In this document: in pieces, positions 2,485 to 63,972 of the stretch
Layout: the number at the start of each line of letters is the position of its first letter
Position numbering within the stretch: position 1 is the stretch's first letter
The notes under the pieces: generated by a model
Seen by the model: only the letters and a program-made list of their open reading frames with translations
Told to the model about the DNA's origin: nothing
The model's database searches: none
Program-made: the position numbers and the translations under genes
IMG/VR virus record: IMGVR_UViG_3300012943_000004
Location: 1-64,000 of that record
DNA length: 64,000 bases
Strand: one strand, 5' to 3'
From: a virus
Taxonomy: Duplodnaviria; Caudoviricetes

Positions 2485-2861
2485 TGATCGTAGTTACGAT
2501 CCAGCATGTTTCTGAGACAGAAGCACCTCTTGAGCTTGCGAAGATTAAGTTCGAAAGTGCTGGATCCGAAGATGGTACAAACTCAGAGTATTCTGCTCGT
2601 GCCGTCTTTAAAGTTGGACCTACGTCAGTGCGAATTACAAACAGGTTCTTATACAAGTTTCCTCGCACGAGAATAAACATACTCGGATTACTCAAAGCGT
2701 TCCTCGATCAGTTCGAGGAGGAAGATTTAGGTCTCGATGAGCCTCTTTCATCAGATATGGCATGGCGACAGTACGGAACTTTGCCAGAGATTCAAGCCAG
2801 AGGTGAAGCCGATAAACTTGATCCTCACGGACCCGCCTTTTGGCGTGGACAATCTGTCTAA
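2484..2861 (+). CDS. hypothetical protein
   Basis: 125-aa ORF coupled to rusA stop (TAATG); last 125 nt overlap the methyltransferase gene. Confidence 0.6.
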   Translation: MIVVTIQHVSETEAPLELAKIKFESAGSEDGTNSEYSARAVFKVGPTSVRITNRFLYKFPRTRINILGLLKAFLDQFEEEDLGLDEPLSSDMAWRQYGTLPEIQARGEADKLDPHGPAFWRGQSV

Positions 2862-3459
2862 TATGGCAGTTACCGAATCGGGCAAGAAGTATGCACGCAA
2901 GATTGCAAACGATGAGTCACCGGAAATCGCCATATCTACCTTTAAGTCGGTAATGTCCGTTTTGCTCCCCAAAACGGCTAATGATGCCGATATGTACGTT
3001 TTCACCTCTTACCAAGTTCTGTCGGAATGGCTAGTAATGACAGATCAGTTTCTGCAGTTGTTTGGCTTTACTCGCAAAGCCGTTCTGATCTGGCAAAAGG
3101 AAGGCCCAGGCATGGGCGACCTTAATTGTCCTTGGGGAATGGGCTGCGAGTTTATTCTGTTCTTCCAGAAGGGACGGCGTGAGAAAGATGCCAAGAGAAG
3201 AAATAACGTTCTGTCGATACCACAGCTCAGGCCAAACGAGCTCATTCATCCTCACGAGAAGCCGACGGCGTTACTTGAACTTCTCATTAAGGCATCCACG
3301 AGCCACGGTGACTTTATCGTCGATCCATTTGCCGGCAGCGGCAGTACCGTCAGGGCAGCGAAGGCTGTCGGTAGATCTTGCGTGGGAATCGAATATGATG
3401 AGGAAAATTATCGTCTCGCAAGCAAGGCGCTTGAGTCCAAAGAGGACGGCCTGTTCTGA
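2737..3459 (+). CDS. beta-class N4/N6 DNA methyltransferase
   Basis: IWHGDS start, LILTDPPF (motif IV) before HPHEKP and DPFAGSGST (motif I). Confidence 0.92.
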   Translation: MSLFHQIWHGDSTELCQRFKPEVKPINLILTDPPFGVDNLSNMAVTESGKKYARKIANDESPEIAISTFKSVMSVLLPKTANDADMYVFTSYQVLSEWLVMTDQFLQLFGFTRKAVLIWQKEGPGMGDLNCPWGMGCEFILFFQKGRREKDAKRRNNVLSIPQLRPNELIHPHEKPTALLELLIKASTSHGDFIVDPFAGSGSTVRAAKAVGRSCVGIEYDEENYRLASKALESKEDGLF

Positions 3460-35032: not shown

Positions 35033-35344
35033 TTACGTTATGGCGGTTGTGTTCGGCAAGGATTCCGCTTCATTATTGCAAAAATTATTCATCTCGGTAA
35101 GAGTTGATTCAGAAAGTTTAGCTTCATCCTGAGTGATATTAACCGTGTGAACTCTCAGGCATTCTCTACACCTGAGCATCACCTTGCCGCCTTCTACAAA
35201 GACCTCCCCAAAGATCCTGTGCTGTTTATAGACCTTGACGTGTACAAACAGTTTACCTCTTCGTACACCGTAAGTGGCTAACAAAGGATTTCGGTTACAA
35301 AAGCACCGAAGCTCCTTTTCACGAGAGGATCGTCCCGCACTCAC
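35033..35344 (-). CDS. Zn-ribbon hypothetical protein
   Basis: RCFC ... RCREC; coupled between portal and protease genes. Confidence 0.7.
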   Translation of the reverse strand: MSAGRSSREKELRCFCNRNPLLATYGVRRGKLFVHVKVYKQHRIFGEVFVEGGKVMLRCRECLRVHTVNITQDEAKLSESTLTEMNNFCNNEAESLPNTTAIT

Positions 35345-37038
35345 ATCTTCTCCAGCACCAGGTCGATTTCACTAAACATGGCAGTCCTGAACTCTAACAT
35401 AAATGCACTCAGGCCGTTTACGAACCCCATAGAGGTCTTATCGCTAAGGTATCCTCCGAGAATTGTAAAGAACCTGACCACTTGCTGCTGTGCGTCCTGA
35501 ATACCATATTCCTCCAAAGCTTCACCAAGCTGCTTTGCAAACCCAAACGAAGGCTCGTAGCTTCCGAGTCTATCGTCTAGATTTGCCTTGGAGACCTGTG
35601 CTTCAATTCTAGAAGAGATGTTTTCGAGTACTGAATAGACTCTCCTTTGATTGTCGGTTTTTGCTTTACTCTTTGGAGTAACCTTCTTTGAAGGTTCGTC
35701 TTTGGGCTGCGATGGAGTATTTGGATCAACTTGAGGCTCGGTGAGGATGTTGACCTCCTCTAGCGGAACTCCAATAATCTCGCCAAGCAGCCGAAGATCA
35801 GGCTTTGCGCGACCTGCTGTAATCATCGCGGTTGCGATGTTCTGGAGCATCTCCTGATTATCGTTATTCAAAGGAGCAAACTCAATCTCGGCCTGTGGCG
35901 CATTAAGTCCATAGTTCCAGTCGTGCAAGGGCTTGACAATGTACTTATCAATATAGTACTTAAAGTCGCCCGCGATAGCATTGAGCATCCAGAGGTAGAC
36001 CTTCATATGTCCTACGCCCAGGTTATATGAGCCTACGTCGGCGGTACGAAGAAGCAAGATCGGAGTGAATAGCGCCAGCGACATTTCTTCATCGAGCCTC
36101 TGCATGTAGCGCTCGAAATCAGCGCCACGCATCTGAGACTCCATGTACTCAAGAGTGTAATCGTAATTCGGATTATTTTCTTGGCCGACTGGAGTTCTAT
36201 CGTTTGGCAAAACCACGACAGAACGATTACGAAGCTGCTGGATCAAGCCCGCCATCATTGTATTGCCGTAGATTTCTTCACCGTTCACTGTAACTGTATC
36301 GTCGTATGGCGCGCGTCCTACAGGAGTCGGCTCCCCGAACCGCTCGTAGTAGCGGTTAGCGAAGAGATGCATGAGGATCGAGAAGAACCAACTCTGAAAC
36401 GCTGGCCGAAGAAGCTTTCGTCCTGCGTAATCACCGTTCTCCATCAGGAGCGGATACCAATACGAATACTCTACTGGAATATTAGCCGGAGCGCCGAATT
36501 GAGTAATACCGTCAAACCTGCGAACCTTTGGAGCCACCGAGCGTCCCTCGGGCTTAAATCCGTTTACCCACTTCCAATGAACGCAGCAATCTTCAGGAAA
36601 GAGATCTTTAACCTTCGACAGAACGATAGCCTTGTTATCGACATCGTTATCCCACTCGAGAATATTTGGAGAATACCCAGCCCAAAACGACTGCGCCATT
36701 CCACGAATTAGTCGAGTCCAAACCTTACGAAGGTTCTCTTCAATCTGATCTGCGATACTCTTTTTAGAGCACTTGATATGCCACTGCATCTGATGCAACA
36801 AGAACGTCAACACTGATAATGAAGAATTAATCTGATAATGATCCTTCATCTGTCGGAAATCCTGAAGCGTCAGATTATCCAAGTTAAACGAGATGGCCCC
36901 GCCGCCGGGAAGCTGAGTGAGTGGCCGCATGTTTTCGCCAGCCCAAACTCCTACGCCCTCTCCAAGCTTAGGAGGCTTTTCTTTTCTGTACTGCAGAGAA
37001 CTAATTGGCTGACCGTTAGGACCGAGGAGTCCACTCAC
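35341..37038 (-). CDS. portal protein (DUF935 / Mu gp29-like)
   Basis: GRKLLRPAFQSWFF...F.ERFGEPTPVG ... GSYNLGVGH pattern; follows TerL. Confidence 0.9.
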   Translation of the reverse strand: MSGLLGPNGQPISSLQYRKEKPPKLGEGVGVWAGENMRPLTQLPGGGAISFNLDNLTLQDFRQMKDHYQINSSLSVLTFLLHQMQWHIKCSKKSIADQIEENLRKVWTRLIRGMAQSFWAGYSPNILEWDNDVDNKAIVLSKVKDLFPEDCCVHWKWVNGFKPEGRSVAPKVRRFDGITQFGAPANIPVEYSYWYPLLMENGDYAGRKLLRPAFQSWFFSILMHLFANRYYERFGEPTPVGRAPYDDTVTVNGEEIYGNTMMAGLIQQLRNRSVVVLPNDRTPVGQENNPNYDYTLEYMESQMRGADFERYMQRLDEEMSLALFTPILLLRTADVGSYNLGVGHMKVYLWMLNAIAGDFKYYIDKYIVKPLHDWNYGLNAPQAEIEFAPLNNDNQEMLQNIATAMITAGRAKPDLRLLGEIIGVPLEEVNILTEPQVDPNTPSQPKDEPSKKVTPKSKAKTDNQRRVYSVLENISSRIEAQVSKANLDDRLGSYEPSFGFAKQLGEALEEYGIQDAQQQVVRFFTILGGYLSDKTSMGFVNGLSAFMLEFRTAMFSEIDLVLEKM

Positions 37039-38933
37039 CGTCTATTACCTCTTCCTGGTAGAAGTCGAGCCGGTAGTGGAAACACAATGCTTTGAGAGCC
37101 GTCATTAATCGAAGATGGAGGGCGCGGTGCGTGCATGCCCGGCATACCAAGATCTGGCAATCGAGGATCTCCAGTACCGTATCCGTCTGTACCTGTGCCG
37201 AGCATTTCTTTCTCTACTCGTGCCTTATCCATAGAGATTACATTACGGCGGAAGCTCCTGTCACCCATCAGGGTGAACACAACCCCAGCCATAGAATCCG
37301 CGACGTCTTTACTACCCTGTGCCGGGTGGTCGACCTTGTTGTCCTTCTGCTCAAGTGCATACAATTCACGCTTTGCTATCTCAACTAACTCGCCGTCACC
37401 CTGGCGAATATAAGTCATATATGGAGGCATTTCTACTCTGTCCTCATAGAACGCCTCTCGGAGATCCTCATAAGGAAGCATAGACTTATCAATCGATACA
37501 TAGTCAACTGCGAATCTACGCTTTGCTAACTGCTGCATCGTGTCGGTACTCTGAAAGCCATCCATCGTGACCATACGAATTCTGAACCCATAATGATCCT
37601 TGAGCTCGTAAATAATTCGCCGCACGTCCTGAATCATAATCTCAGTGCCGGGCGCCGCGTGAATACGCATCAGGAAATCAAAGACAATATATGGCTTCTT
37701 GTCTCCGTCAACCTCTACGACATGACTAACGTGTCCCATTGATAAGCCGAGAGAGTCTCCATCAGCTGAATATGCAAGATCAATATGGACAGCTCTCTTA
37801 AGTGGAGTTTTGCATGTAAACCAAGATTCAAACTTTGGACGACTGACTCCTGTATCTACAGGAGATCCAAGGTTATCATAGCGCTCGTTCCAGCGCTCAA
37901 CGGCCTGGTCGATCTTGTAAGTAAGACTGATAAACGGATCGCCAGCCGCAGGCGGAATGCCGGCCAGATCACGAAGCGCCTTCTCGGGACTATTTTCGAA
38001 GTTACTTCGATACGCTTCTGGAACCTCGATTATCTGACTTACGTCGTTAATCAGCAAAGCGGCATCGGTAGGAATAATCTGCTTACGCTTGATACTATAC
38101 CAGAAAGAAAGTCGCTTCCCCCTGGCGTCCGAGAATCTCTTCCAGCCGAGCGAATCCCAAAGCGTCATTCTGACTGTATGGGCGTCAGGATCCTTCTCGA
38201 ACTCGGCAAGCTTTCGAGCTGCGAAACCAGACGCTTTTTTCATCTGCCCAACTACCAGAAGGAATCCTCTGTCTTGGAATCGTGAATCAATACGAGTATA
38301 GATCGTATTGTATCCATCCTCCGCGTAGTCCTTCTCTTCTGTGACCTTGTGCGAATCGGCCTCGTCTAGAATGCCGCCCAGGATGTTATAACCCTCGAAG
38401 GTAGTTTCCTTGCTATTTCCCGGCAGAACCCAAATATCCTTCTCGAATCGAAGTTGCTTAGTGAACTTCGGATCGAAGGGGTAGTTATTTGCAAACCATT
38501 CACAATGCTCAATTCGAGCTTTGATATCACCGAATACGGTTTCGACCGCCTGGTCGGACGTTGTGCTCATCTGCATAAACGCAATACGCGCGCCGGGAAG
38601 AAGATCGTAATAATCCTGCGGATCCTTCAGGCATAGAATCCAGTGCGTCATATAAGGTATGACCACACTCGCCATTGTGGTCTTTCCGATTCCAATAGCG
38701 CCTGTGAACATAGCCTTACGATAGCGCGCAATTCGCGCATTGTTTACATTCTCGCCAAATATCTCAACGAGTTCCGCCACGACGCCGGGACGCATCTTCG
38801 ACATGATGTTGCAGTAGCCTGGGCCGAGAAACTCTTTTACACTCGCAGGCTTCTCGTGAAAGTGCGGATTCCTCTGGAGCCAACGAAGTTGCGCTGCAGC
38901 CTTCTTAGCGTCCCATCCCGGCGAAGGCGTCAT
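37035..38933 (-). CDS. terL: terminase large subunit
   Basis: Walker A TGAIGIGKT, Walker B ILDEAD, nuclease HID and C-terminal VDHP..GSKDVADS. Confidence 0.95.
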   Translation of the reverse strand: MTPSPGWDAKKAAAQLRWLQRNPHFHEKPASVKEFLGPGYCNIMSKMRPGVVAELVEIFGENVNNARIARYRKAMFTGAIGIGKTTMASVVIPYMTHWILCLKDPQDYYDLLPGARIAFMQMSTTSDQAVETVFGDIKARIEHCEWFANNYPFDPKFTKQLRFEKDIWVLPGNSKETTFEGYNILGGILDEADSHKVTEEKDYAEDGYNTIYTRIDSRFQDRGFLLVVGQMKKASGFAARKLAEFEKDPDAHTVRMTLWDSLGWKRFSDARGKRLSFWYSIKRKQIIPTDAALLINDVSQIIEVPEAYRSNFENSPEKALRDLAGIPPAAGDPFISLTYKIDQAVERWNERYDNLGSPVDTGVSRPKFESWFTCKTPLKRAVHIDLAYSADGDSLGLSMGHVSHVVEVDGDKKPYIVFDFLMRIHAAPGTEIMIQDVRRIIYELKDHYGFRIRMVTMDGFQSTDTMQQLAKRRFAVDYVSIDKSMLPYEDLREAFYEDRVEMPPYMTYIRQGDGELVEIAKRELYALEQKDNKVDHPAQGSKDVADSMAGVVFTLMGDRSFRRNVISMDKARVEKEMLGTGTDGYGTGDPRLPDLGMPGMHAPRPPSSINDGSQSIVFPLPARLLPGRGNRR

Positions 38934-40285
38934 TAGTCAACCAGCTCTCCGGTGACAACTTCGGATTTAGAGAACTCCTCCATCTTGGCTTCGATCATTT
39001 GAGGAGTGATCTTAGCTCGAGGGATTCCGTCGGCCTCGTATTGAGAAATAACCTGAGAAACAAACTGATTAGGCGTGATCGCAGTGATCGCAGCTGCGGC
39101 CCCATTAGTATTAACTCCAATTGCAATCTTTGCGCCACCGCGCAGGTTGGGATCAAGTAGCTTAGCAAGCTGAACACCTTCAGTAAAGATCGTACTAAGC
39201 ATCTTTGTCACTTCAGGATCAGTTTCGCCAAACTCCTCTTCATCCTCAATAGCACGTTCAGCGCGCTCGACCTGAACCCCAATGATAGCTCCTAAGCCAT
39301 CGATAATCTTTGAACTATCGCGTGATTTGAATGCTGTAATAAGCTTTGATGTTTCGGCTCCCGGCACGCTACATACGCTCCCTACTCTGAAGTAATTACA
39401 AGTGAGATTGATAGAACAGGTGTCACACAAAAACTTGTCTCCCTGTTCTGCGCGCCCCGTACTTGATCTATAAGATTTCGACAAGGCAGGCTTTCGCTGT
39501 ACGTCTAACTGATGCTGAAGTGAGTCGTAAGGACCGCGTGTTCTAAACTTAAGGTTCTCATGCCAGTGTTCGCCCGCCCACTGAGCTGACTTGATGTTAT
39601 ACATGCATCGATTCCGTGGAATCTTAAGATCTACTACCTGAAAACCTAAAAGGTGGATCCATGCCTGACAATGAGAAGTTCTTTCCCAAAACATAACCTT
39701 CCCAGGAGGGAGAATAACCTTGCCCTTCTGTGCATCCCAACGCGGATCAATATCAGCTGCCGCGAAGCCTAGTCCGAAAGCAATTCGCCAGCTATATGTT
39801 CCATGCAGATGAATTATGCAGTTTGGATTCTCCTCCTGCATGATAGCTAATTCTTTAAGGAATTGCTTTCCCTGCATCGTCTGTGACGGAGGCCACTCCG
39901 TTACGATAACTCTATGCTCTTGGCCTAATACTGGAGTTTCGTCGATAGCGGTTCCGTTTAGCTTTGCATCACAAGATTGCGGATCCTCCCCCACGGGAAA
40001 CTCAATCATTTCTCTCAGGAGCTCAATTGGCTCACCGAATGTCCAGGTTGGATAAACAGCTTTTGGATTAGTCAGATCGTGATCCTGATCCAATTCTGCT
40101 GTACCCTGATCTCCTACCAAGAGAAGCCGGAAAGGATTAATTTCTCCAAAGTAGAGCTTTGCATGAACGAATGGCTCGATCCGCCTCTTGGTAAGCGCTC
40201 CGCGATCCCAAGAAACCGTATTGCCTCCGGCCTCTACGAGCTCCTTGATATAGGAGTGTGGGTTTCTATACCATACTTCTGTCAC
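38933..40285 (-). CDS. large protein in the terminase-small-subunit position; possible TGT-like barrel plus Cys4 motif plus helical TerS-like C-terminus
   Basis: TAATG-coupled to terL; IHLHG...GFAAAD...KGKVILP; CDTC-x5-C-x8-C; likely GTG start at 40285. Confidence 0.55.
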   Translation of the reverse strand: MTEVWYRNPHSYIKELVEAGGNTVSWDRGALTKRRIEPFVHAKLYFGEINPFRLLLVGDQGTAELDQDHDLTNPKAVYPTWTFGEPIELLREMIEFPVGEDPQSCDAKLNGTAIDETPVLGQEHRVIVTEWPPSQTMQGKQFLKELAIMQEENPNCIIHLHGTYSWRIAFGLGFAAADIDPRWDAQKGKVILPPGKVMFWERTSHCQAWIHLLGFQVVDLKIPRNRCMYNIKSAQWAGEHWHENLKFRTRGPYDSLQHQLDVQRKPALSKSYRSSTGRAEQGDKFLCDTCSINLTCNYFRVGSVCSVPGAETSKLITAFKSRDSSKIIDGLGAIIGVQVERAERAIEDEEEFGETDPEVTKMLSTIFTEGVQLAKLLDPNLRGGAKIAIGVNTNGAAAAITAITPNQFVSQVISQYEADGIPRAKITPQMIEAKMEEFSKSEVVTGELVD

Positions 40286-40377
40286 AATAAAGTCCAATCG
40301 GATCACTGATCTATATCGCGTTACGCGCGCGTATAGGTCCAAACTATACACCGCTAGCAAAGGTAGTCAACCCCAGC

Positions 40378-40413
40378 AAGAAACGCCCCCTCGCCGCAGA
40401 GGAGGCGTTTCTT
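40378..40413. terminator. terminator-like hairpin in the divergent control region
   Basis: AAGAAACGCCCCCTC / GAGGAGGCGTTTCTT, 14 of 15 paired, with T-runs on both strands. Confidence 0.6.
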
Positions 40414-40633: not shown

Positions 40634-40682
40634 TGTGGTTATACGGTGGCGATCCATGCGCCTAATCTTTTGCGGAGGTCGA

Positions 40683-41564
40683 ATGTCAGAAGAACTTGCT
40701 GCCTTAGTGGCTAAGCGATTCATTCAAAGGCGCGATATTAAGGCAATTCAGTTTGCAGATGGCAAGTGGTCGCCCGATACCAAAGTTCAGCGCAATCTAA
40801 GCCTATACGCGCCACTTGGATTCAAGATGCAACACTTGCGGGATCATATAGCAGGCGAAAGAACATACGGACACTACTTACTTGACGAGAATGATCTCTG
40901 TCGAGTTTTCGTCTTTGACATCGATCTTATTGAAATGAAGGTCAATACCTCTACCGGCGAGATCACGCAGTCTGGCACTTGGGTTGAGATTCCAGAAATT
41001 AATACGCTAAGCCCTGACGCTACTGATAATGAAGTGGATCAGGGCTTTCTTGTTCATAGCGAAATCTCCCCAAGGCACCTTTGGCACGATCGTAAACAAC
41101 CTGGCCCGCGCGCTTGGTATAAGTACCAGATGCGAATGCTCGCACAAAAGTTTGCACGAGTAATCACAGAGGATCTTGGTATCGATTGTGCTGTTTCTTA
41201 TAGCGGCAGTAAGGGCATTCACGTATATGGCCTTACTGGACCGATTGCAGCCAGGGAGGCGCGCGAGGGAGCTGCTCTAGTGTTGGATCTTCTGGACGAG
41301 TTCGAACCCTCGCGTGGCAACAACTTCTTCAGGCACAAGAATGCTGATCCCGTTCAGGGATTTCAAAACTTTGAGATTGAAGTATTCCCCAAGCAAGATT
41401 CACTCGAGAACAAAGACTTGGGAAATCTCGTCAGACTCCCCTTTGGGAGAAATCAGAAATCCCCTGACCCCTGTTTTCTTTTAGATCTCAGAACCCCAAT
41501 GTCGCAGCTTACGCCACACCCCGAACCCGAGAGACTCTTAGAGTCCGGCAACCCCTACCTTTAA
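40683..41564 (+). CDS. archaeo-eukaryotic primase (AEP) superfamily primase/polymerase
   Basis: FVFDID (motif I), SYSGSKGIHVY (motif II), NLVRLPFG; GGAGG RBS before ATG 40683. Confidence 0.85.
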   Translation: MSEELAALVAKRFIQRRDIKAIQFADGKWSPDTKVQRNLSLYAPLGFKMQHLRDHIAGERTYGHYLLDENDLCRVFVFDIDLIEMKVNTSTGEITQSGTWVEIPEINTLSPDATDNEVDQGFLVHSEISPRHLWHDRKQPGPRAWYKYQMRMLAQKFARVITEDLGIDCAVSYSGSKGIHVYGLTGPIAAREAREGAALVLDLLDEFEPSRGNNFFRHKNADPVQGFQNFEIEVFPKQDSLENKDLGNLVRLPFGRNQKSPDPCFLLDLRTPMSQLTPHPEPERLLESGNPYL

Positions 41565-58267: not shown

Positions 58268-59854
58268 ATGCCGTTCCAAAAGGCGCCATCGTGCGCTGAT
58301 TGTCCGTCCTGTCTGACCGCGGGAGACGCAAGTAGCTTCTTTCGCAAGGGTATTGGCGTATCTGCCTGCGCAAGGTTCGGTACACCAATGGCAAGGCCGG
58401 ACTCGAGTCCCGACGAGATCGCAGCTCGTCAGCGCCACTTCGCTTCCAAGTGCCCCAAGTTCGGAGAGCCGAAGCCTCAGATCCCCAACTTCGAGACCGT
58501 CAAGATGGAAGTTCTTCTCGGTATGCCGCAAGTCGGAAGCGGTGAAGGCTACGCGCCGGAACTCGTCTCGTCATGCAAGGCGTGCGTCCACTACCTCAAT
58601 GAGGACAAGGTTGCAAACGAGTGGGGCTGGAGCGTTCCTATCTGCGCCGCAAAGGGAACGCTGCTTCTCGGCAATCGATTGACCGTGGAGTCGAAAGACT
58701 GCGAATACAAGTCTTTCGCCGGCATATCCCTCGGTAACGGCACCCCCAACGGTGACGGCTTTTCTACAGGCTGGTACAAGTCGCTCCAGTTCCTTCCGGA
58801 GTATGCGCCTGGATTTACAGGATCGGTTGCGACAGCGTTCGTTCAGGTTCAGCAAGAGCTGATCGAGCCGTCGACTTACGAGACCGACGCTCCAGTCAGC
58901 GCAGACGATGCAGCCAGCGGGATTCGTGCCTGGCGCAAGATCGTGTCGCAGGAGGATGAAGTCTTCTCGGTGATGATCCCGGTCTACGAGCGGAGCTTCT
59001 TTACTCCCTTGGAGCAGCGAAAGATCCCGAACACTGGCGACTCTGAGCACCCTGAGCACTATGTCGACCACTTCGACGGAGTATATACAGCCTCCTTCTG
59101 CTGGCAGGTGACCGACCAGACTCCAGCTTTTTGGGGTCAGCCCGGAACCGGAAAGACCGAGTTTCTGCGCCATATGGCATGGCTCATGCAGATTCCGTAC
59201 GAGCGCTTCAGTATCACAGCCTCGTCGGAGCTCGAGGATCTCGCCGGAAAGATCATGGTTAACCCGACTGACGGAACATACTTCCAGTACGGGCGGTTCG
59301 TCAAAGCCTGGCAGCGTCCCTGCGTGCTCGTCGTGGACGAACCGAACACTGGCCAGAATGACGTCTGGCAGTTCTTCCGTCCACTGACCGACGACTCCAA
59401 GCAACTCATTCTCGACATGAACGACGGCGAGACGCTGGATAGGACCGACGGAACCTTCCTGGCCTTCTGTATGAACCCAGCCTGGGACGTCAAGAACGTT
59501 GGAGCGAATCCGATCTCGGACGCCGACGTGAACAGGCTCATGCACAACGAGATCCCTCTGCCTGACGAATCGGTGGAGATGGAGATCATCAAGCAGGCCT
59601 GCGAAGATGGCGGATTCGAGCTCCGTCAAGACCAGCTCGAGACGATCATGGCGATCGGCACAGAGATCCGCGGACTGTGTGACAACGGCACTCTCCCAAT
59701 CACCTGGGCGATCCGACCACAGATCAAAGTGGCCCGCGCACTGCAGGGCTTCAAGCCTCTCAAGGCATATAGTCTGGCGGTTGCAGATTTTCTGGAGCCG
59801 TCCGTTCGTGAGCAGATTCTCGACGTAGTGAACGCTCACGTGTCCGAAGGATAG
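58268..59854 (+). CDS. MoxR/CbbQ/CobS-family AAA+ ATPase with Cys-rich N-terminal domain
   Basis: GQPGTGKT, RFS.T, LVVDEPN, FCMNP, DVNRL; N-terminal CADCPSC and CKACVHY modules. Confidence 0.88.
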   Translation: MPFQKAPSCADCPSCLTAGDASSFFRKGIGVSACARFGTPMARPDSSPDEIAARQRHFASKCPKFGEPKPQIPNFETVKMEVLLGMPQVGSGEGYAPELVSSCKACVHYLNEDKVANEWGWSVPICAAKGTLLLGNRLTVESKDCEYKSFAGISLGNGTPNGDGFSTGWYKSLQFLPEYAPGFTGSVATAFVQVQQELIEPSTYETDAPVSADDAASGIRAWRKIVSQEDEVFSVMIPVYERSFFTPLEQRKIPNTGDSEHPEHYVDHFDGVYTASFCWQVTDQTPAFWGQPGTGKTEFLRHMAWLMQIPYERFSITASSELEDLAGKIMVNPTDGTYFQYGRFVKAWQRPCVLVVDEPNTGQNDVWQFFRPLTDDSKQLILDMNDGETLDRTDGTFLAFCMNPAWDVKNVGANPISDADVNRLMHNEIPLPDESVEMEIIKQACEDGGFELRQDQLETIMAIGTEIRGLCDNGTLPITWAIRPQIKVARALQGFKPLKAYSLAVADFLEPSVREQILDVVNAHVSEG

Positions 59855-61194: not shown

Positions 61195-63972
61195 ATGTCA
61201 ACAGATGTTTTTAGGTCAGATCAAGCGATAGACCTAACTCAAGCTCGCGCACGCGAGGCGGTCCGTAAGTTCCGGCCCATGCAGGCTGGACTTACGGGCT
61301 TTGCGCGTGCGCTCACAGGGCGAAACGTCACAGTCGAACTCGCTGTCGGGATACCTCGAACCGATGGGAAGAGGATTTACTACCATCCTCCCATCGCTCT
61401 GGGTGACAACCATACTCACGTCAGGAGTCTCTGTAACAAGCGTGATCCAGAGACGTTAGTCCTGAAGTGCAAGGCCTGTGATGTTCACGAAGAAATCATG
61501 GTGGACATCTACCATGAGATCGGGCATATCGCAGGCGGCTCATTCGAGAAGCCGTCACAAGAAGATATCGACGTGATGATTAAGGCCTCAATCGACGAGC
61601 GCGGCTCGAAGTACTCGAAGCTGGTTCAGGACGCCCTTAAGCAGAGGCAGACTCAAGCTGGTTACGGCTACATCTCAGTGAGTTCTCTACTGAGTGAGTA
61701 CATGCCGATTCTTGTGAACGTTCTCGAGGACTGTCGAGTCGACGTTGCTATGCATCGCGCTCGCAAGGGCACAAAGATCATGTTTGACTCGCAGACTCAG
61801 AAGTTGTTCCGCGACGGCAAGGAAGCTGACGACGGCACTATTCTTCACTGGATCGACAGGCCCGTCAATCATCAGGCGGTAATCGGAATCCTGCTGATTG
61901 CCTGCAAGTACAAGTACGACGGCTGGCTTTTGCCGGAAATCGAGGAGATGCTCAAAGATGAAGAACTCAACAGAATTGTCCGACGAATCGACTCGGCAAC
62001 CCGAGCCAAAGACGCCTATCGGCTCGCCTTTCCGGTTCTCGACCGACTTCGGGAACTTGGGTATTGTAAGCTCCCTGAAGACCCTATCCAGGATGAGCCC
62101 GAAGATGAGCCTGAAGAGTCAGGCGAGCCTGGTGAATCTGGAGAGTCAAGTCAGGAAGAGTCTGATGAAAGTGGATCGTTGGATGAAAGTGGCGATCCAG
62201 GCCCTGCGTCAGAAGATGGCTCAGGTTCTTCTGGATCTCCTGAGTCCGATCCTGGAGAAGAATCTGCGTCTGAAGAAGGCGATGACTCCACTGATGGTTC
62301 GCCTGGAGATGGCAGCGAGTCCTCTGATGATTCTTCGGATAGTAGCGATGGATCTGGGAGTGGAGAGTCAGATCCTGACGGTGATGCTGGATCGTCAGAC
62401 GGCAGCGGTACTGAAAGTGGAAGAAACGATTCGTCAAACGAAGAACAGGAGCAGGTAGATGGCACAGATAGTGACTCGGTATCTCCAGGATCTGTCGATG
62501 GTGAGGGATCTCCGTCCGTGGAGGGACGCGGCGCCGGAGGCACAGCAGATGAATCTCCTCAGTCCGGGAGCTCGCAGCGAGCGCCGGAAGGTAGTGATCC
62601 TGGGGAGGATTCAGAAGAGGGGAGAGCCGACTCGTTACATCAAGGTGACGAAGATGGAGCACCATGCGGAAGTCCAGATCAAGCTGGGTCCGGAGGTGGA
62701 GCTGGTGACGGTAACGAGCTCGTACTGGAAGGATCCAGCGATGAGGCTGTCCCTGGACGACACGACGAGAGCGGCGAGCCAGATGGTGAGGGAGATCGCG
62801 GAAGCGGAAATGGCCAGGAGGATTCTGGCAGATCTGAACAGGCATCTGAACAAGCATCTGAACTAGACCCTGTTGAGTCTGGCGAGGACCGCGGGATGGG
62901 CGGCGTTCAGACTAATGCTGCGGACGGCGGAAGAGCTGCTGATCTGAATGCAGAGATCAAGGTCTTTGCGCATCACGATCTGGACTTCAGTAACATAACA
63001 CCTGAAGATCATGGTTCGTCCGCCGCCGAGGAAGCTGCGATGGAAGTTGCAATCATGCAGAGTCTGTACTTTGAGACTGCATCGCAGAACGTTGCAGGAG
63101 TCAGGATCCATAAGTTCGGTCAGCCAATATTAGACAGTAATGGCGACATCCTTTCCGAGGGCTGGCCCGTGCCTGGAATGTCACAGGCGACTTTAGTCAG
63201 GAAGGGCTTCTCGTGCGACATGTCTGTAGACGAGGCTGTAATCGGCCCGATGCTTCTGCAAATGCGAGCAGTCTTTGCCGAGAACCGCAGAGCTGAAATG
63301 CTTCGCAACCAGCGGTCAGGCAGAGTTCGCACCAAGAGTTTGGGCCGAAGGTTTGCGATCCAGGACGACAGGCTCTTCCAGAAGAAGCGGATTCCCGGCA
63401 AGAGATCCTACGGAGCGATTCTTGGAATCGACATCTCAGGGTCGACAACTGGTACGAACGTTATCCTTGCCAAGCGTGCCGCTAAGTATCAGGCAGAGCT
63501 ATTCTTTAGAACAGGCGTAGAGTTTGCTATCTACGCCCATACTGCATGGCGAACCACACAGAAGTCTACTCTTGGCGATTCGTCGCTGTGGCTGGACATG
63601 TACGAGATCAAGCGATTCGACGAACTCTGGAACGAGGACACGAAGAGCCGTCTCGACTCCATTGGACCAGACGCGCTTAACCTTGACGGACACGGTTTGG
63701 AGTATTACCGTAAAGTCATCGAAAAGACGAGCTACACGGATCTCCTTATCGAGTATTTCACTGACGGCGAGATGCCTGCAGCTAATCACGACGAGGAGCT
63801 CGAGATCCTTCAGCGCGAAATCAAGGTCTGTGCGCAGAAGAAGATTCATCTAGTCGGCGTAGGCATCCATACTGATTCTCCGATTCGTCACGGCTTGGAT
63901 ACGGTTCAGATCGATAGTGAAAATGATCTCAAGAAAGTCATTACTCATATCGGTCAGTTATTCATGCGCTGA
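61195..63972 (+). CDS. vWA-domain protein (CobT/CbbO-like): HExxH N-terminal domain, long acidic linker, C-terminal vWA
   Basis: YHEIGH and NVLEDCRVD; ~290-aa D/E/S/G-rich linker; MIDAS DISGS ... HT ... FTDG; AAGGAG RBS. Confidence 0.85.
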   Translation: MSTDVFRSDQAIDLTQARAREAVRKFRPMQAGLTGFARALTGRNVTVELAVGIPRTDGKRIYYHPPIALGDNHTHVRSLCNKRDPETLVLKCKACDVHEEIMVDIYHEIGHIAGGSFEKPSQEDIDVMIKASIDERGSKYSKLVQDALKQRQTQAGYGYISVSSLLSEYMPILVNVLEDCRVDVAMHRARKGTKIMFDSQTQKLFRDGKEADDGTILHWIDRPVNHQAVIGILLIACKYKYDGWLLPEIEEMLKDEELNRIVRRIDSATRAKDAYRLAFPVLDRLRELGYCKLPEDPIQDEPEDEPEESGEPGESGESSQEESDESGSLDESGDPGPASEDGSGSSGSPESDPGEESASEEGDDSTDGSPGDGSESSDDSSDSSDGSGSGESDPDGDAGSSDGSGTESGRNDSSNEEQEQVDGTDSDSVSPGSVDGEGSPSVEGRGAGGTADESPQSGSSQRAPEGSDPGEDSEEGRADSLHQGDEDGAPCGSPDQAGSGGGAGDGNELVLEGSSDEAVPGRHDESGEPDGEGDRGSGNGQEDSGRSEQASEQASELDPVESGEDRGMGGVQTNAADGGRAADLNAEIKVFAHHDLDFSNITPEDHGSSAAEEAAMEVAIMQSLYFETASQNVAGVRIHKFGQPILDSNGDILSEGWPVPGMSQATLVRKGFSCDMSVDEAVIGPMLLQMRAVFAENRRAEMLRNQRSGRVRTKSLGRRFAIQDDRLFQKKRIPGKRSYGAILGIDISGSTTGTNVILAKRAAKYQAELFFRTGVEFAIYAHTAWRTTQKSTLGDSSLWLDMYEIKRFDELWNEDTKSRLDSIGPDALNLDGHGLEYYRKVIEKTSYTDLLIEYFTDGEMPAANHDEELEILQREIKVCAQKKIHLVGVGIHTDSPIRHGLDTVQIDSENDLKKVITHIGQLFMR

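Follow-up and report, generated by a model that had tools for sequence, protein, structure and literature searches.

A TGT/DpdA-like barrel in a candidate small terminase encoded directly upstream of terL in a tailed phage

Which protein initiates DNA packaging in a tailed phage whose terL gene is preceded by a 450-codon gene with no recognizable Pfam domain? Classical small terminases (TerS) have approximately 100 to 200 aa, compared with 450 aa here, and all solved TerS structures known to us read DNA through a domain of the helix-turn-helix (HTH) type. We propose, with somewhat better than even confidence, that the 450-aa protein is the small terminase and that it reads DNA through a recruited DpdA-like barrel, which most likely serves in binding and not in preQ0 insertion. 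If the protein is, as seems most likely, a DNA-packaging initiator, it is an unusual one; in the literature we found no paper on it or on the fold of the homologues described below.

The locus and its relatives

The gene lies in a window of 64,000 nucleotides (the whole stretch of DNA that was analysed) from a phage genome that is complete at 77.8 kb. The features of the locus are as follows.

38933..40285, minus strand: the whole gene, 450 aa, GTG start (open reading frame and translation)
37035..38933, minus strand: terL, 632 aa, matching phrog_2 terminase large subunit
35341..37038, minus strand: Mu-like portal gene, next in the operon (PF06074, E 2.4e-26; phrog_113)
38931..38935, minus strand: TAATG stop/start overlap with terL, read from the sequence
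40343..40370, minus strand: promoter-like site ahead of the 450-aa gene (TTGACT-16-TATAGT, 10/12)
40635-41564, plus strand: AEP primase gene (phrog_5362)

The initial annotation, made from the sequence alone, had placed the gene first in the virion operon and had described it as TAATG-coupled to terL. Both points are borne out: the stop codon TAA (38935-38933) and the terL ATG (38933-38931) have one A in common, and the gene stands behind the promoter-like site, which lies within the divergent intergenic region between it and the AEP primase gene. An alternative, longer form beginning with TTG at 40360 is unlikely, because homologues begin at the GTG form and the promoter-like site falls inside the extension. 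Among the repeats in and around the gene, no convincing pac-like array was found.

Using a 16-sequence alignment of homologues of the 450-aa protein as the query, we found the order of divergent primase, 450-aa gene, terL, and portal in 35/35 related IMG/VR loci. The gaps between the 450-aa gene and terL in these relatives hold small accessory genes (“morons”) or inteins and nothing else (an SNase-like ORF, a small membrane protein, an HNH-like ORF, peptidase-like ORFs, and TerL inteins); a small TerS was sought in them and not found. The earlier view that there is no other TerS candidate is upheld on the scale of the whole 77.8-kb genome, where none of the ~55 ORFs gave another PHROG terminase-small-subunit match.

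The protein matches phrog_6902, named “terminase small subunit,” over its full length (E 1.7e-73), as well as a second TerS-named group, phrog_16015. Members of the two groups occur in Gordonia CS-type, Tsukamurella, and Rhodococcus ReqiDocB7 phages (114 phage records) and are true homologues, with 28-33% identity over the full length and likewise located before terL. Many are named TerS in RefSeq, and most entries from GenBank submitters are hypothetical. Clustering at 50% identity divides the family into 376 clusters; the present phage falls in a distinct, uncultured clade whose members are ~50% identical to one another. In ReqiDocB7, the reading of gp001 and gp002 as two separable proteins was rejected; the split appears to be due to a frameshift in the record, since the gp002 frame, followed across the annotated gap, encodes the Cys knuckle.

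The barrel and the Cys4 knuckle

The N-terminal two-thirds of the protein divide into three parts.

39557..40285, minus strand: residues 1-243, (beta/alpha)8 barrel of the TGT/DpdA type (AF2 model and fold searches)
39440..39556, minus strand: residues 244-282, variable linker (pLDDT 55-87; mean column conservation 0.26)
39371..39439, minus strand: residues 283-305, D283 and the putative Cys4 metal knuckle (C287, C290, C296, C305), invariant

The initial annotation had likened several motifs to those of tRNA-guanine transglycosylases (TGT) and DpdA, and had named beforehand, as a possible refutation, an N-terminal half that does not model as a TIM barrel. In the AF2 model of the protein (pLDDT 90.8), this half is a TIM barrel, and its best solved and viral neighbors are TGT, ArcTGT, and DpdA. 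TGT/DpdA ranked first in four independent searches (Foldseek-PDB, VIA-wide, VIA second look, and BFVD), with structural alignments ~40 residues longer than those for other barrels and extending into the metal subdomain.

Profile comparison points tentatively the same way. With hhalign, the barrel profile was matched to two independent DpdA subfamilies (P 1.6e-4 to 4.4e-4, probability 33-50%), the 9g type at P 4.4e-4 over 128 columns and the Rosebush type at P 1.9e-4. Both subfamily profiles align with the same barrel segment in an identical register, at scores of 34-38, compared with 13-16 for reversed profiles and ≤24 for 20 column shuffles; widening the DpdA profile by locus search yielded mostly close relatives. 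In this alignment, the DpdA His falls opposite H159, the nucleophile Asp opposite D178, and the invariant R..N opposite R226/N230; the motifs singled out earlier (HG, nucleophile Asp, R..N) are those that align with DpdA here. D27 is aligned with the DpdA general acid at low confidence, and no equivalent of the third, base-recognising Asp could be aligned in the family.

Among the residues of the barrel are D27 (in WDRG), Y78-P79-x-W81, Q122/H124, H159-x-H161-G162, D178, G195, and R226-x3-N230. The motifs IHLHG (158-162), FAAAD (174-178), and KGKVILPPG (187-195) are present as described, while the spacers between them, given earlier as 10 and 7 residues, are in fact 11 and 8; RCMYNIKS (226-233) and the CDTC-x5-C-x8-C cluster (C287-C305) are likewise in place.

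Pfam gave no match to the protein at E up to 10, including PF01702 (TGT) and PF20314 (DUF6610/DpdA4); Pfam, NCBIfam, and PDB sequence searches with the single sequence and with a 130-sequence profile returned nothing usable; no usable neighbor was found in the ESM Atlas; and a gammaproteobacterial (E. coli-type) TGT alignment was not picked up by the barrel profile in hhalign (probability 0.6-1.4%).

The four cysteines follow the barrel with the spacing C287-x2-C290-x5-C296-x8-C305. Together with D283, they are invariant in 130/130 diverse homologues and in 120/120 of the closest ones, so the cluster is not a chance occurrence. Structural alignments with TGT and ArcTGT continue through residues 300-327, spanning the Zn subdomain of these enzymes. 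The Cys4 cluster sits where a TGT Zn subdomain would, with a spacing unlike that of TGT, whose metal motif is C-x-C-x2-C...H. The knuckle region also matches phrog_887 “queuine tRNA-ribosyltransferase” weakly (E 0.017); when the Cys-knuckle and C-terminal profiles were compared with DpdA or TGT in hhalign, no signal emerged. The putative metal may be Zn or an Fe−S cluster.

Conservation of the residues expected for catalysis depends on the depth of the comparison. Among 130 diverse homologues, D27 is retained in 62% and D178 in 88%, and three invariant Asp residues are not found at the family level. Among the 120 closest relatives, the phage's own clade, D27 is present in 118/120, H159 in 113/120, and D178 in 120/120, while Q122, H124, H161, R226, and N230 are invariant. 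The description of the fold as degenerate therefore fits the family as a whole, which also offers no third Asp, but not this clade, in which D27, H159, and D178 are conserved and in which, on that sequence evidence, catalysis by the barrel may be possible. In TGT and DpdA, the three Asp (general acid/base, base recognition, and nucleophile) are invariant and needed (PMC10164549).

According to the preprint 10.1101/2023.04.13.536721, a DpdA-family member accompanies 7-deazaguanine synthesis genes in every virus that has them. Immediately upstream of terL in Rosebush-type, Marvinvirus, and Microbacterium phages are genuine DpdA and preQ0 genes. For the present phage, a search of all six frames of the complete genome with the Pfam models for QueC, QueD/PTPS, FolE, radical-SAM (QueE), and TGT found no match, which extends to the whole genome the absence of folE, queC, queD, and queE that had been noted for the window. 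A six-frame search of the complete genome with PF20314 (DUF6610) was also without a match, and QueC was found in none of five related near-complete genomes. Because the three invariant Asp are not kept and the 7-deazaguanine synthesis genes are absent, the barrel is most likely a binding module and not a preQ0 insertase.

The protein thus differs from the known DpdA DNA 7-deazaguanine transglycosylases (phage DpdA1 of 9g/CAjan, the Rosebush-type actinophage protein, and the bacterial protein of PDB 7UI4) in giving no Pfam/HMMER match, in that its family does not keep the catalytic Asp triad throughout, and in the absence of preQ0 pathway genes from the genome. The DpdA sequences examined (305-346 aa) in turn have neither the Cys4 knuckle nor a 145-residue helical, predicted TerL-binding C-terminal half. 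Compared with TGTs (bacterial 2Z1X, archaeosine 1IQ8, and the non-catalytic eukaryotic subunit QTRT2, 6FV5), its context is packaging and not tRNA modification, its metal motif is C-x2-C-x5-C-x8-C, and it shows no E. coli-type TGT profile signal.

The helical C-terminal half and TerL

The remainder of the protein is helical, and its end is predicted to meet the N terminus of TerL.

39155..39370, minus strand: residues 306-377, a short helix and a long antiparallel helical hairpin (324-352, 357-377), from the models
39074..39154, minus strand: residues 378-404, Gly/Ala-rich flexible linker (pLDDT 45-60)
38963..39073, minus strand: residues 405-441, two C-terminal helices predicted to dock on TerL (co-fold interface 401-439)
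38814-38915, minus strand: TerL residues 7-40, the predicted docking site (co-fold interface)

When TerL was co-folded with residues 306-450, the score was 0.64, compared with 0.01 for the best of 3 controls; the mark used was attained by 58/80 solved complexes and 2/110 mismatched pairs. The runs share ≥64% of contacts, with a partner pLDDT of ≥63. The predicted interface places residues 401-439 of the 450-aa protein against TerL residues 7-40 and 145-150, and the N-terminal TerL motif FDP..W18-L19..F25..P29 is conserved. We know of no solved complex for this family, so memorisation by the co-folding model is unlikely. The prediction supports binding of TerL by the C-terminal region, a failure of which the initial annotation had named as part of a possible refutation.

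In the hairpin region, R341, E349, A374, L376, and P379 are ≥90% conserved among the 130 homologues, as are G420 and T427 in the C-terminal helices. Small terminases form rings of 8-12 subunits through a helical core, bind pac or cos DNA sequence-specifically, and stimulate TerL. The hairpin (324-377) is, from the models, a candidate oligomerisation core, and its region is common to phrog_16015 “terminase small subunit.” A sub-threshold HTH_28 match (E 0.2) falls in the C-terminal helices. Searches of the PDB with the C-terminal model returned generic hairpins only and no solved TerS fold, so the earlier description of these helices as TerS-like stands by position, PHROG naming, and TerL co-fold, and not by fold.

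Like classical TerS (lambda gpNu1, P22 gp3, SPP1 G1P, Sf6 gp1, and T4 gp16), the protein is encoded upstream of, and coupled to, terL, has a helical hairpin core, and is predicted to bind the TerL N terminus through its C-terminal segment; a C-terminal tail on the TerL N terminus is the classical TerS-TerL geometry, as in lambda gpNu1-gpA. A T4-gp16-like TerS is matched weakly in BFVD (E 0.23). Unlike classical TerS, it is modeled with a TIM barrel, and no HTH or winged-helix DNA-binding domain, in its N-terminal 243 residues, and it matches neither a Pfam/NCBIfam TerS family nor a solved TerS fold.

Competing readings and a proposed mode of action

The fold of TGT and DpdA binds nucleic acid with a purine flipped into a pocket, and several readings of its presence beside terL have to be weighed. 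That the likeness reflects nothing beyond the common TIM-barrel arrangement and a chance echo of motifs, the barrel being of unrelated origin, is very improbable: the four independent fold searches agree on TGT/DpdA with the longer alignments, the two DpdA profiles align one segment in one register well above reversed and shuffled controls, and the weak phrog_887 match adds to them over the knuckle. It is also rather doubtful that the protein is a TerL-associated accessory and not TerS proper, for example, a marker of the genome end or pac site, a packaging regulator, or an anti-defence factor, with TerL either needing no classical TerS or working with a small one that has escaped recognition. 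That it resembles none of the known TerS folds or Pfam families, that it is two to three times the size of a usual TerS, and that the genome has several unannotated small ORFs would fit such a role, but its place directly upstream of terL is kept in all 35 loci, translation is coupled here, the predicted geometry between its C-terminal tail and the TerL N terminus is that of classical pairs, and no alternative TerS match was found among the ~55 ORFs.

An active DNA base-exchange or glycosylase enzyme, forming a fifth DpdA-like branch tethered to TerL and with the TerS role optional, is an unlikely reading to which we give some weight; such an enzyme would act at the packaging start or during threading, modifying or nicking DNA with the use of a host-supplied base. 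It is favored by the near invariance of H159, D178, and (in the low-confidence alignment) D27 among the 120 closest relatives, by the five residues that are invariant there and D283 family-wide, by the predicted TerL docking, and by the Rosebush-type, Marvinvirus, and Microbacterium phages, in which modification and packaging genes are already adjacent. Against it stand the looser retention of D27 and D178 in the wider family, the missing third Asp where TGT and DpdA keep and need all three (PMC10164549), the absence of 7-deazaguanine synthesis genes from this and five related genomes, and the lack of any other TerS to take the packaging role. Slightly less likely again is packaging-coupled base chemistry, in which the TerL-tethered barrel would still be a working base-flipping enzyme that exchanges or excises a purine using a host-derived base, either at the packaging start site or processively as DNA enters the capsid. 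If so, a transglycosylase within the terminase holoenzyme would carry out genome recognition, end formation, or anti-restriction marking.

In the preferred reading of a small terminase with a recruited barrel, a TIM barrel and metal knuckle of TGT/DpdA descent would replace the usual N-terminal helix-turn-helix. Phage DNA would be recognised by residues 1-305, which comprise the barrel and Cys4 knuckle, with the barrel acting as a binding module that has presumably lost catalysis and possibly works via base flipping, while the helical hairpin (324-377) would provide self-assembly. Beyond the flexible linker, the last two helices (405-441) would clamp the conserved N-terminal stretch of TerL (residues 1-40), delivering motor and nuclease to the DNA.

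If this is correct, a TerS that has recruited the fold of a nucleic-acid-modifying enzyme for reading DNA would show a new way for a phage to choose its own genome for packaging, and would be a clear case of an enzyme fold reused for recognition; were the barrel still active, DNA modification would be wired to the packaging motor. The assignment also corrects the annotation of genes so far called “hypothetical protein” or “terminase small subunit” without a stated basis, and adds to the TGT/DpdA superfamily a distant branch missed by current Pfam models. Family members occur in more than 100 Gordonia, Tsukamurella, and Rhodococcus phages that have been cultured, and direct tests are therefore possible in a large family with cultured, genetically tractable phages.

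Gene, family and position before terL

The gene under study is a minus-strand ORF of 450 codons with a GTG start, set among the following genes.

Upstream of the 450-aa gene, opposite strand: AEP primase and helicase
38933-40285 (-): 450-aa TGT/DpdA-like protein
Next after the 450-aa gene: terL, large terminase (phrog_2)
After terL: portal, Mu-type (PF06074)

The TAATG coupling to terL claimed in the initial annotation was confirmed, the last A of the TAA stop codon being the first A of the terL ATG. A promoter-like TTGACT-16-TATAGT (10 of 12 consensus matches) lies at 40370-40343. A longer form starting at TTG 40360 is unlikely: homologues begin where the GTG form does, and the extension would contain the promoter-like site. 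Immediately upstream of this virion-operon site, in the divergent intergenic region, an inverted repeat occupies 40378-40413, with a 6-nt loop between 15-nt arms that are 93% complementary; it may serve as an operator or as a terminator for both directions.

Pfam, NCBIfam and PDB sequence searches with the protein returned no match. In PHROGs its full length matched phrog_6902, “terminase small subunit” (E = 1.7e-73), and its C-terminal half matched phrog_16015, which bears the same name. Homologues with 28 to 33% identity were found by tblastn in 114 cultured phages (103 of Gordonia, 6 of Tsukamurella, 5 of Rhodococcus), where the gene precedes terL and is labelled “hypothetical protein” or “terminase small subunit”; metagenomic relatives form 376 clusters at 50% identity, many on contigs of 70 to 83 kb. 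The only invariant positions in a 130-sequence alignment are D283, C287, C290, C296 and C305. The record of Rhodococcus phage ReqiDocB7 (NC_023706) divides the homologue between gp001 (296 aa) and gp002 (151 aa), both labelled “terminase small subunit.” Read through the annotated break (L002:1000-1100) in the gp002 frame, the sequence encodes the invariant GD-x3-C-x2-C-x5-C-x8-C knuckle, so a frameshift in the record, rather than a true pair of genes, appears to account for the split.

The order divergent AEP primase, 450-aa gene, terL, portal was found in 35 of 35 related IMG/VR loci, and thus position argues for a small terminase. Where relatives have a gap before terL, it is filled by unrelated small accessory genes (morons), with SNase-like, HNH-like and small membrane-protein ORFs as examples, or reflects inteins within terL; none of the gap genes is a TerS candidate. 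About 55 ORFs spread over the entire genome were scanned against PHROGs and likewise yielded no second TerS match, in line with the earlier claim that no other candidate exists. Related phages carry small mobile genes between the TGT-like gene and terL (L189:5328-5711, L190:3375-3758, L191:5888-6136, L196:5232-5483 and L198:1551-1811). Two of these loci have a staphylococcal-nuclease-like ORF, and a small membrane protein of ~85 aa recurs in three. In two related phages, terL either is much longer (a 970-aa ORF, L194:10342-13254) or has an interruption of about 2 kb (L214:11302-14782), which looks like intein insertion.

The window is part of a complete IMG/VR virus record of 77,828 bp, whose terminal repeat measures 123 bp and whose G+C content is 51%. 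Outside it, a tyrosine-integrase-like ORF (L220:4085-4921, genome 67085-67921; phrog_1, E = 1.2e-32) lies among early genes; apart from this ORF, the phage resembles Gordonia CS-type and ReqiDocB7 phages. A CobS/MoxR-like ATPase gene (58268-59854; phrog_5424) is paired with one for a 925-aa CobT/vWA-like protein (61195-63972; phrog_5298).

Barrel fold and likely kinship to TGT and DpdA

The AlphaFold2 model of the protein, built from the 130-sequence alignment, is confident (pLDDT 90.8, pTM 0.82) and starts with a beta/alpha barrel (residues 1-243). A weakly modelled linker joins the barrel to a four-cysteine knuckle (283-305), and helices make up the remainder. Four structure searches concur on TGT/DpdA for the barrel. 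In Foldseek against PDB, the first 37 matches are all tRNA-guanine transglycosylases, with modest scores (E about 1e-3, TM 0.30 to 0.38). In BFVD, the family's own members rank at the top, among them ReqiDocB7 gp001/gp002 and the protein annotated as “terminase small subunit” in Gordonia phage Jumbo. Behind them come viral DpdAs labelled “queuine tRNA-ribosyltransferase” (E = 3e-4 to 1.4e-2), encoded by a Sulfolobales virus and by phages of Microbacterium, Dinoroseobacter and Arthrobacter. The proposed TGT/DpdA-like N-half is supported by the model and its best non-family neighbors. All motifs quoted in the initial annotation are present; two of the spacers measure 11 and 8 residues rather than 10 and 7.

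Profiles of 9g-type DpdA1 and Rosebush-type actinophage DpdA were each compared with the 450-aa family profile by hhalign. The barrel aligned with DpdA1 over 128 columns (residues 78-234 versus 137-292; P = 4.4e-4, probability 33%), with the Rosebush-type profile over 94 columns (P = 1.9e-4, probability 47%) and with a merged DpdA profile at 50% probability; reversed profiles scored 13-16 and 20 column shuffles each at most 24, against 34-38 for the real profiles. The register is identical in both DpdA alignments: Y-P79-x-W81..G-E pairs with P-C-F-H-x-G-E, H159 falls on the conserved His of VHGFG, D178 on the nucleophile Asp of SCDSS/SVDSS, and R226-x3-N230 on the invariant R284-x3-N288 of DpdA1. 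W-D27-R-G-A-L pairs with L-D-S-G-A-F (general acid) at low confidence. A gammaproteobacterial TGT profile gave no signal against the family profile. The knuckle region had a single weak match (E = 0.017), to phrog_887, the family of the 9g, Nadezda, Nicole72 and Lephleur DpdAs. Common descent of the barrel with the TGT/DpdA superfamily is, although not proven, quite likely.

C-terminal helices and predicted docking on TerL

Modelled alone, the C-terminal part (pLDDT 88.3) begins with a short helix and a long antiparallel hairpin (324-352, 357-377); a linker rich in Gly and Ala then leads to two final helices. PDB structure searches matched only generic hairpins, which leaves likeness to any solved TerS unproven.

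Complex prediction of TerL (31-sequence alignment) with residues 306-450 scored 0.64, versus 0.01 for the best of three controls; 58 of 80 solved complexes attain this mark, as do 2 of 110 mismatched pairs. The runs have at least 64% of contacts in common, with a partner pLDDT of at least 63. The predicted interface places residues 401-439, the last two helices, on TerL residues 7-40 and 145-150; the first of these TerL stretches forms a conserved extension (FDP..W18-L19..F25..P29) that precedes Walker A (78-86). The co-folding proposed earlier thus supports, at the level of a model, binding of TerL through the C-terminal helices. In lambda gpNu1-gpA, a C-terminal segment of TerS grips the TerL N-terminus, which the predicted arrangement resembles.

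Proposed packaging role, candidate catalytic residues and 7-deazaguanine genes

TGT and DpdA have three invariant active-site Asp residues, and mutation of the two catalytic ones abolishes activity (PMC10164549). Of 130 diverse homologues, 88% retain D178, 62% retain D27 and 74 sequences have both, and the third Asp has no alignable equivalent; by these alignments, the family as a whole lacks the complete catalytic signature. The 120 sequences closest to the studied phage, however, keep D27 (118/120) and H159 (113/120), and Q122, H124, H161, D178, R226 and N230 are each found in all 120, a fixation that points to a constrained pocket. The fold is therefore “degenerate,” as originally described, across the broad family but not among the closest relatives of the studied phage.

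These residues bear on the main rival, in which the barrel is still an enzyme acting on DNA at packaging and which we consider rather improbable. No match to QueC, QueD/PTPS, FolE, radical-SAM, TGT or DUF6610 (DpdA4) models was found in the complete genome, extending to its full length the absence of folE, queC, queD and queE noted for the window; QueC is also absent from five related near-complete genomes. Judged by this gene content, phage-made 7-deazaguanine is excluded; the host may supply a base for the barrel. We lean, by a modest margin of confidence, toward a small terminase that would read DNA through a recruited DpdA-like barrel and Cys4 knuckle and hold TerL by its C-terminal helices. 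The protein most likely belongs with two known groups, TerS and the TGT/DpdA superfamily. The observation behind the initial annotation was confirmed, and its reading, a degenerate base-recognition fold fused to a packaging initiator, is supported. Full-text literature searches yielded no description of a TGT/DpdA-fold small terminase; a 2023 DpdA preprint nowhere mentions terminase, and a 2019 DpdA paper mentions neither terminase nor packaging.

Near the window start, close to a RusA-like resolvase, genes for a nucleoside 2-deoxyribosyltransferase-like protein (1586-1966, +; phrog_355, E = 7.5e-27) and a DNA methyltransferase (2737-3459, +; phrog_67, E = 3.7e-44) could bear on DNA or nucleotide modification.

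Three phages carry a ParB-like gene, dpdA, (queC), queD, queE and folE.

L182:1-5924: Mycobacterium phage Lephleur (Rosebush type)
L183:202-6329: Mycobacterium phage Nadezda
L184:1-7403: Microbacterium phage Nicole72

At the left end of each genome this block adjoins terL on its upstream side, and the annotation of these left-end stretches includes no TerS. The 7-deazaguanine cluster thus lies immediately before terL in Rosebush-type, Marvinvirus and Microbacterium phages. With dpdA already beside the terminase in these phages, a fusion may have arisen from such a neighborhood. Nicole72 has two DpdA-like genes, gp2 and gp4.
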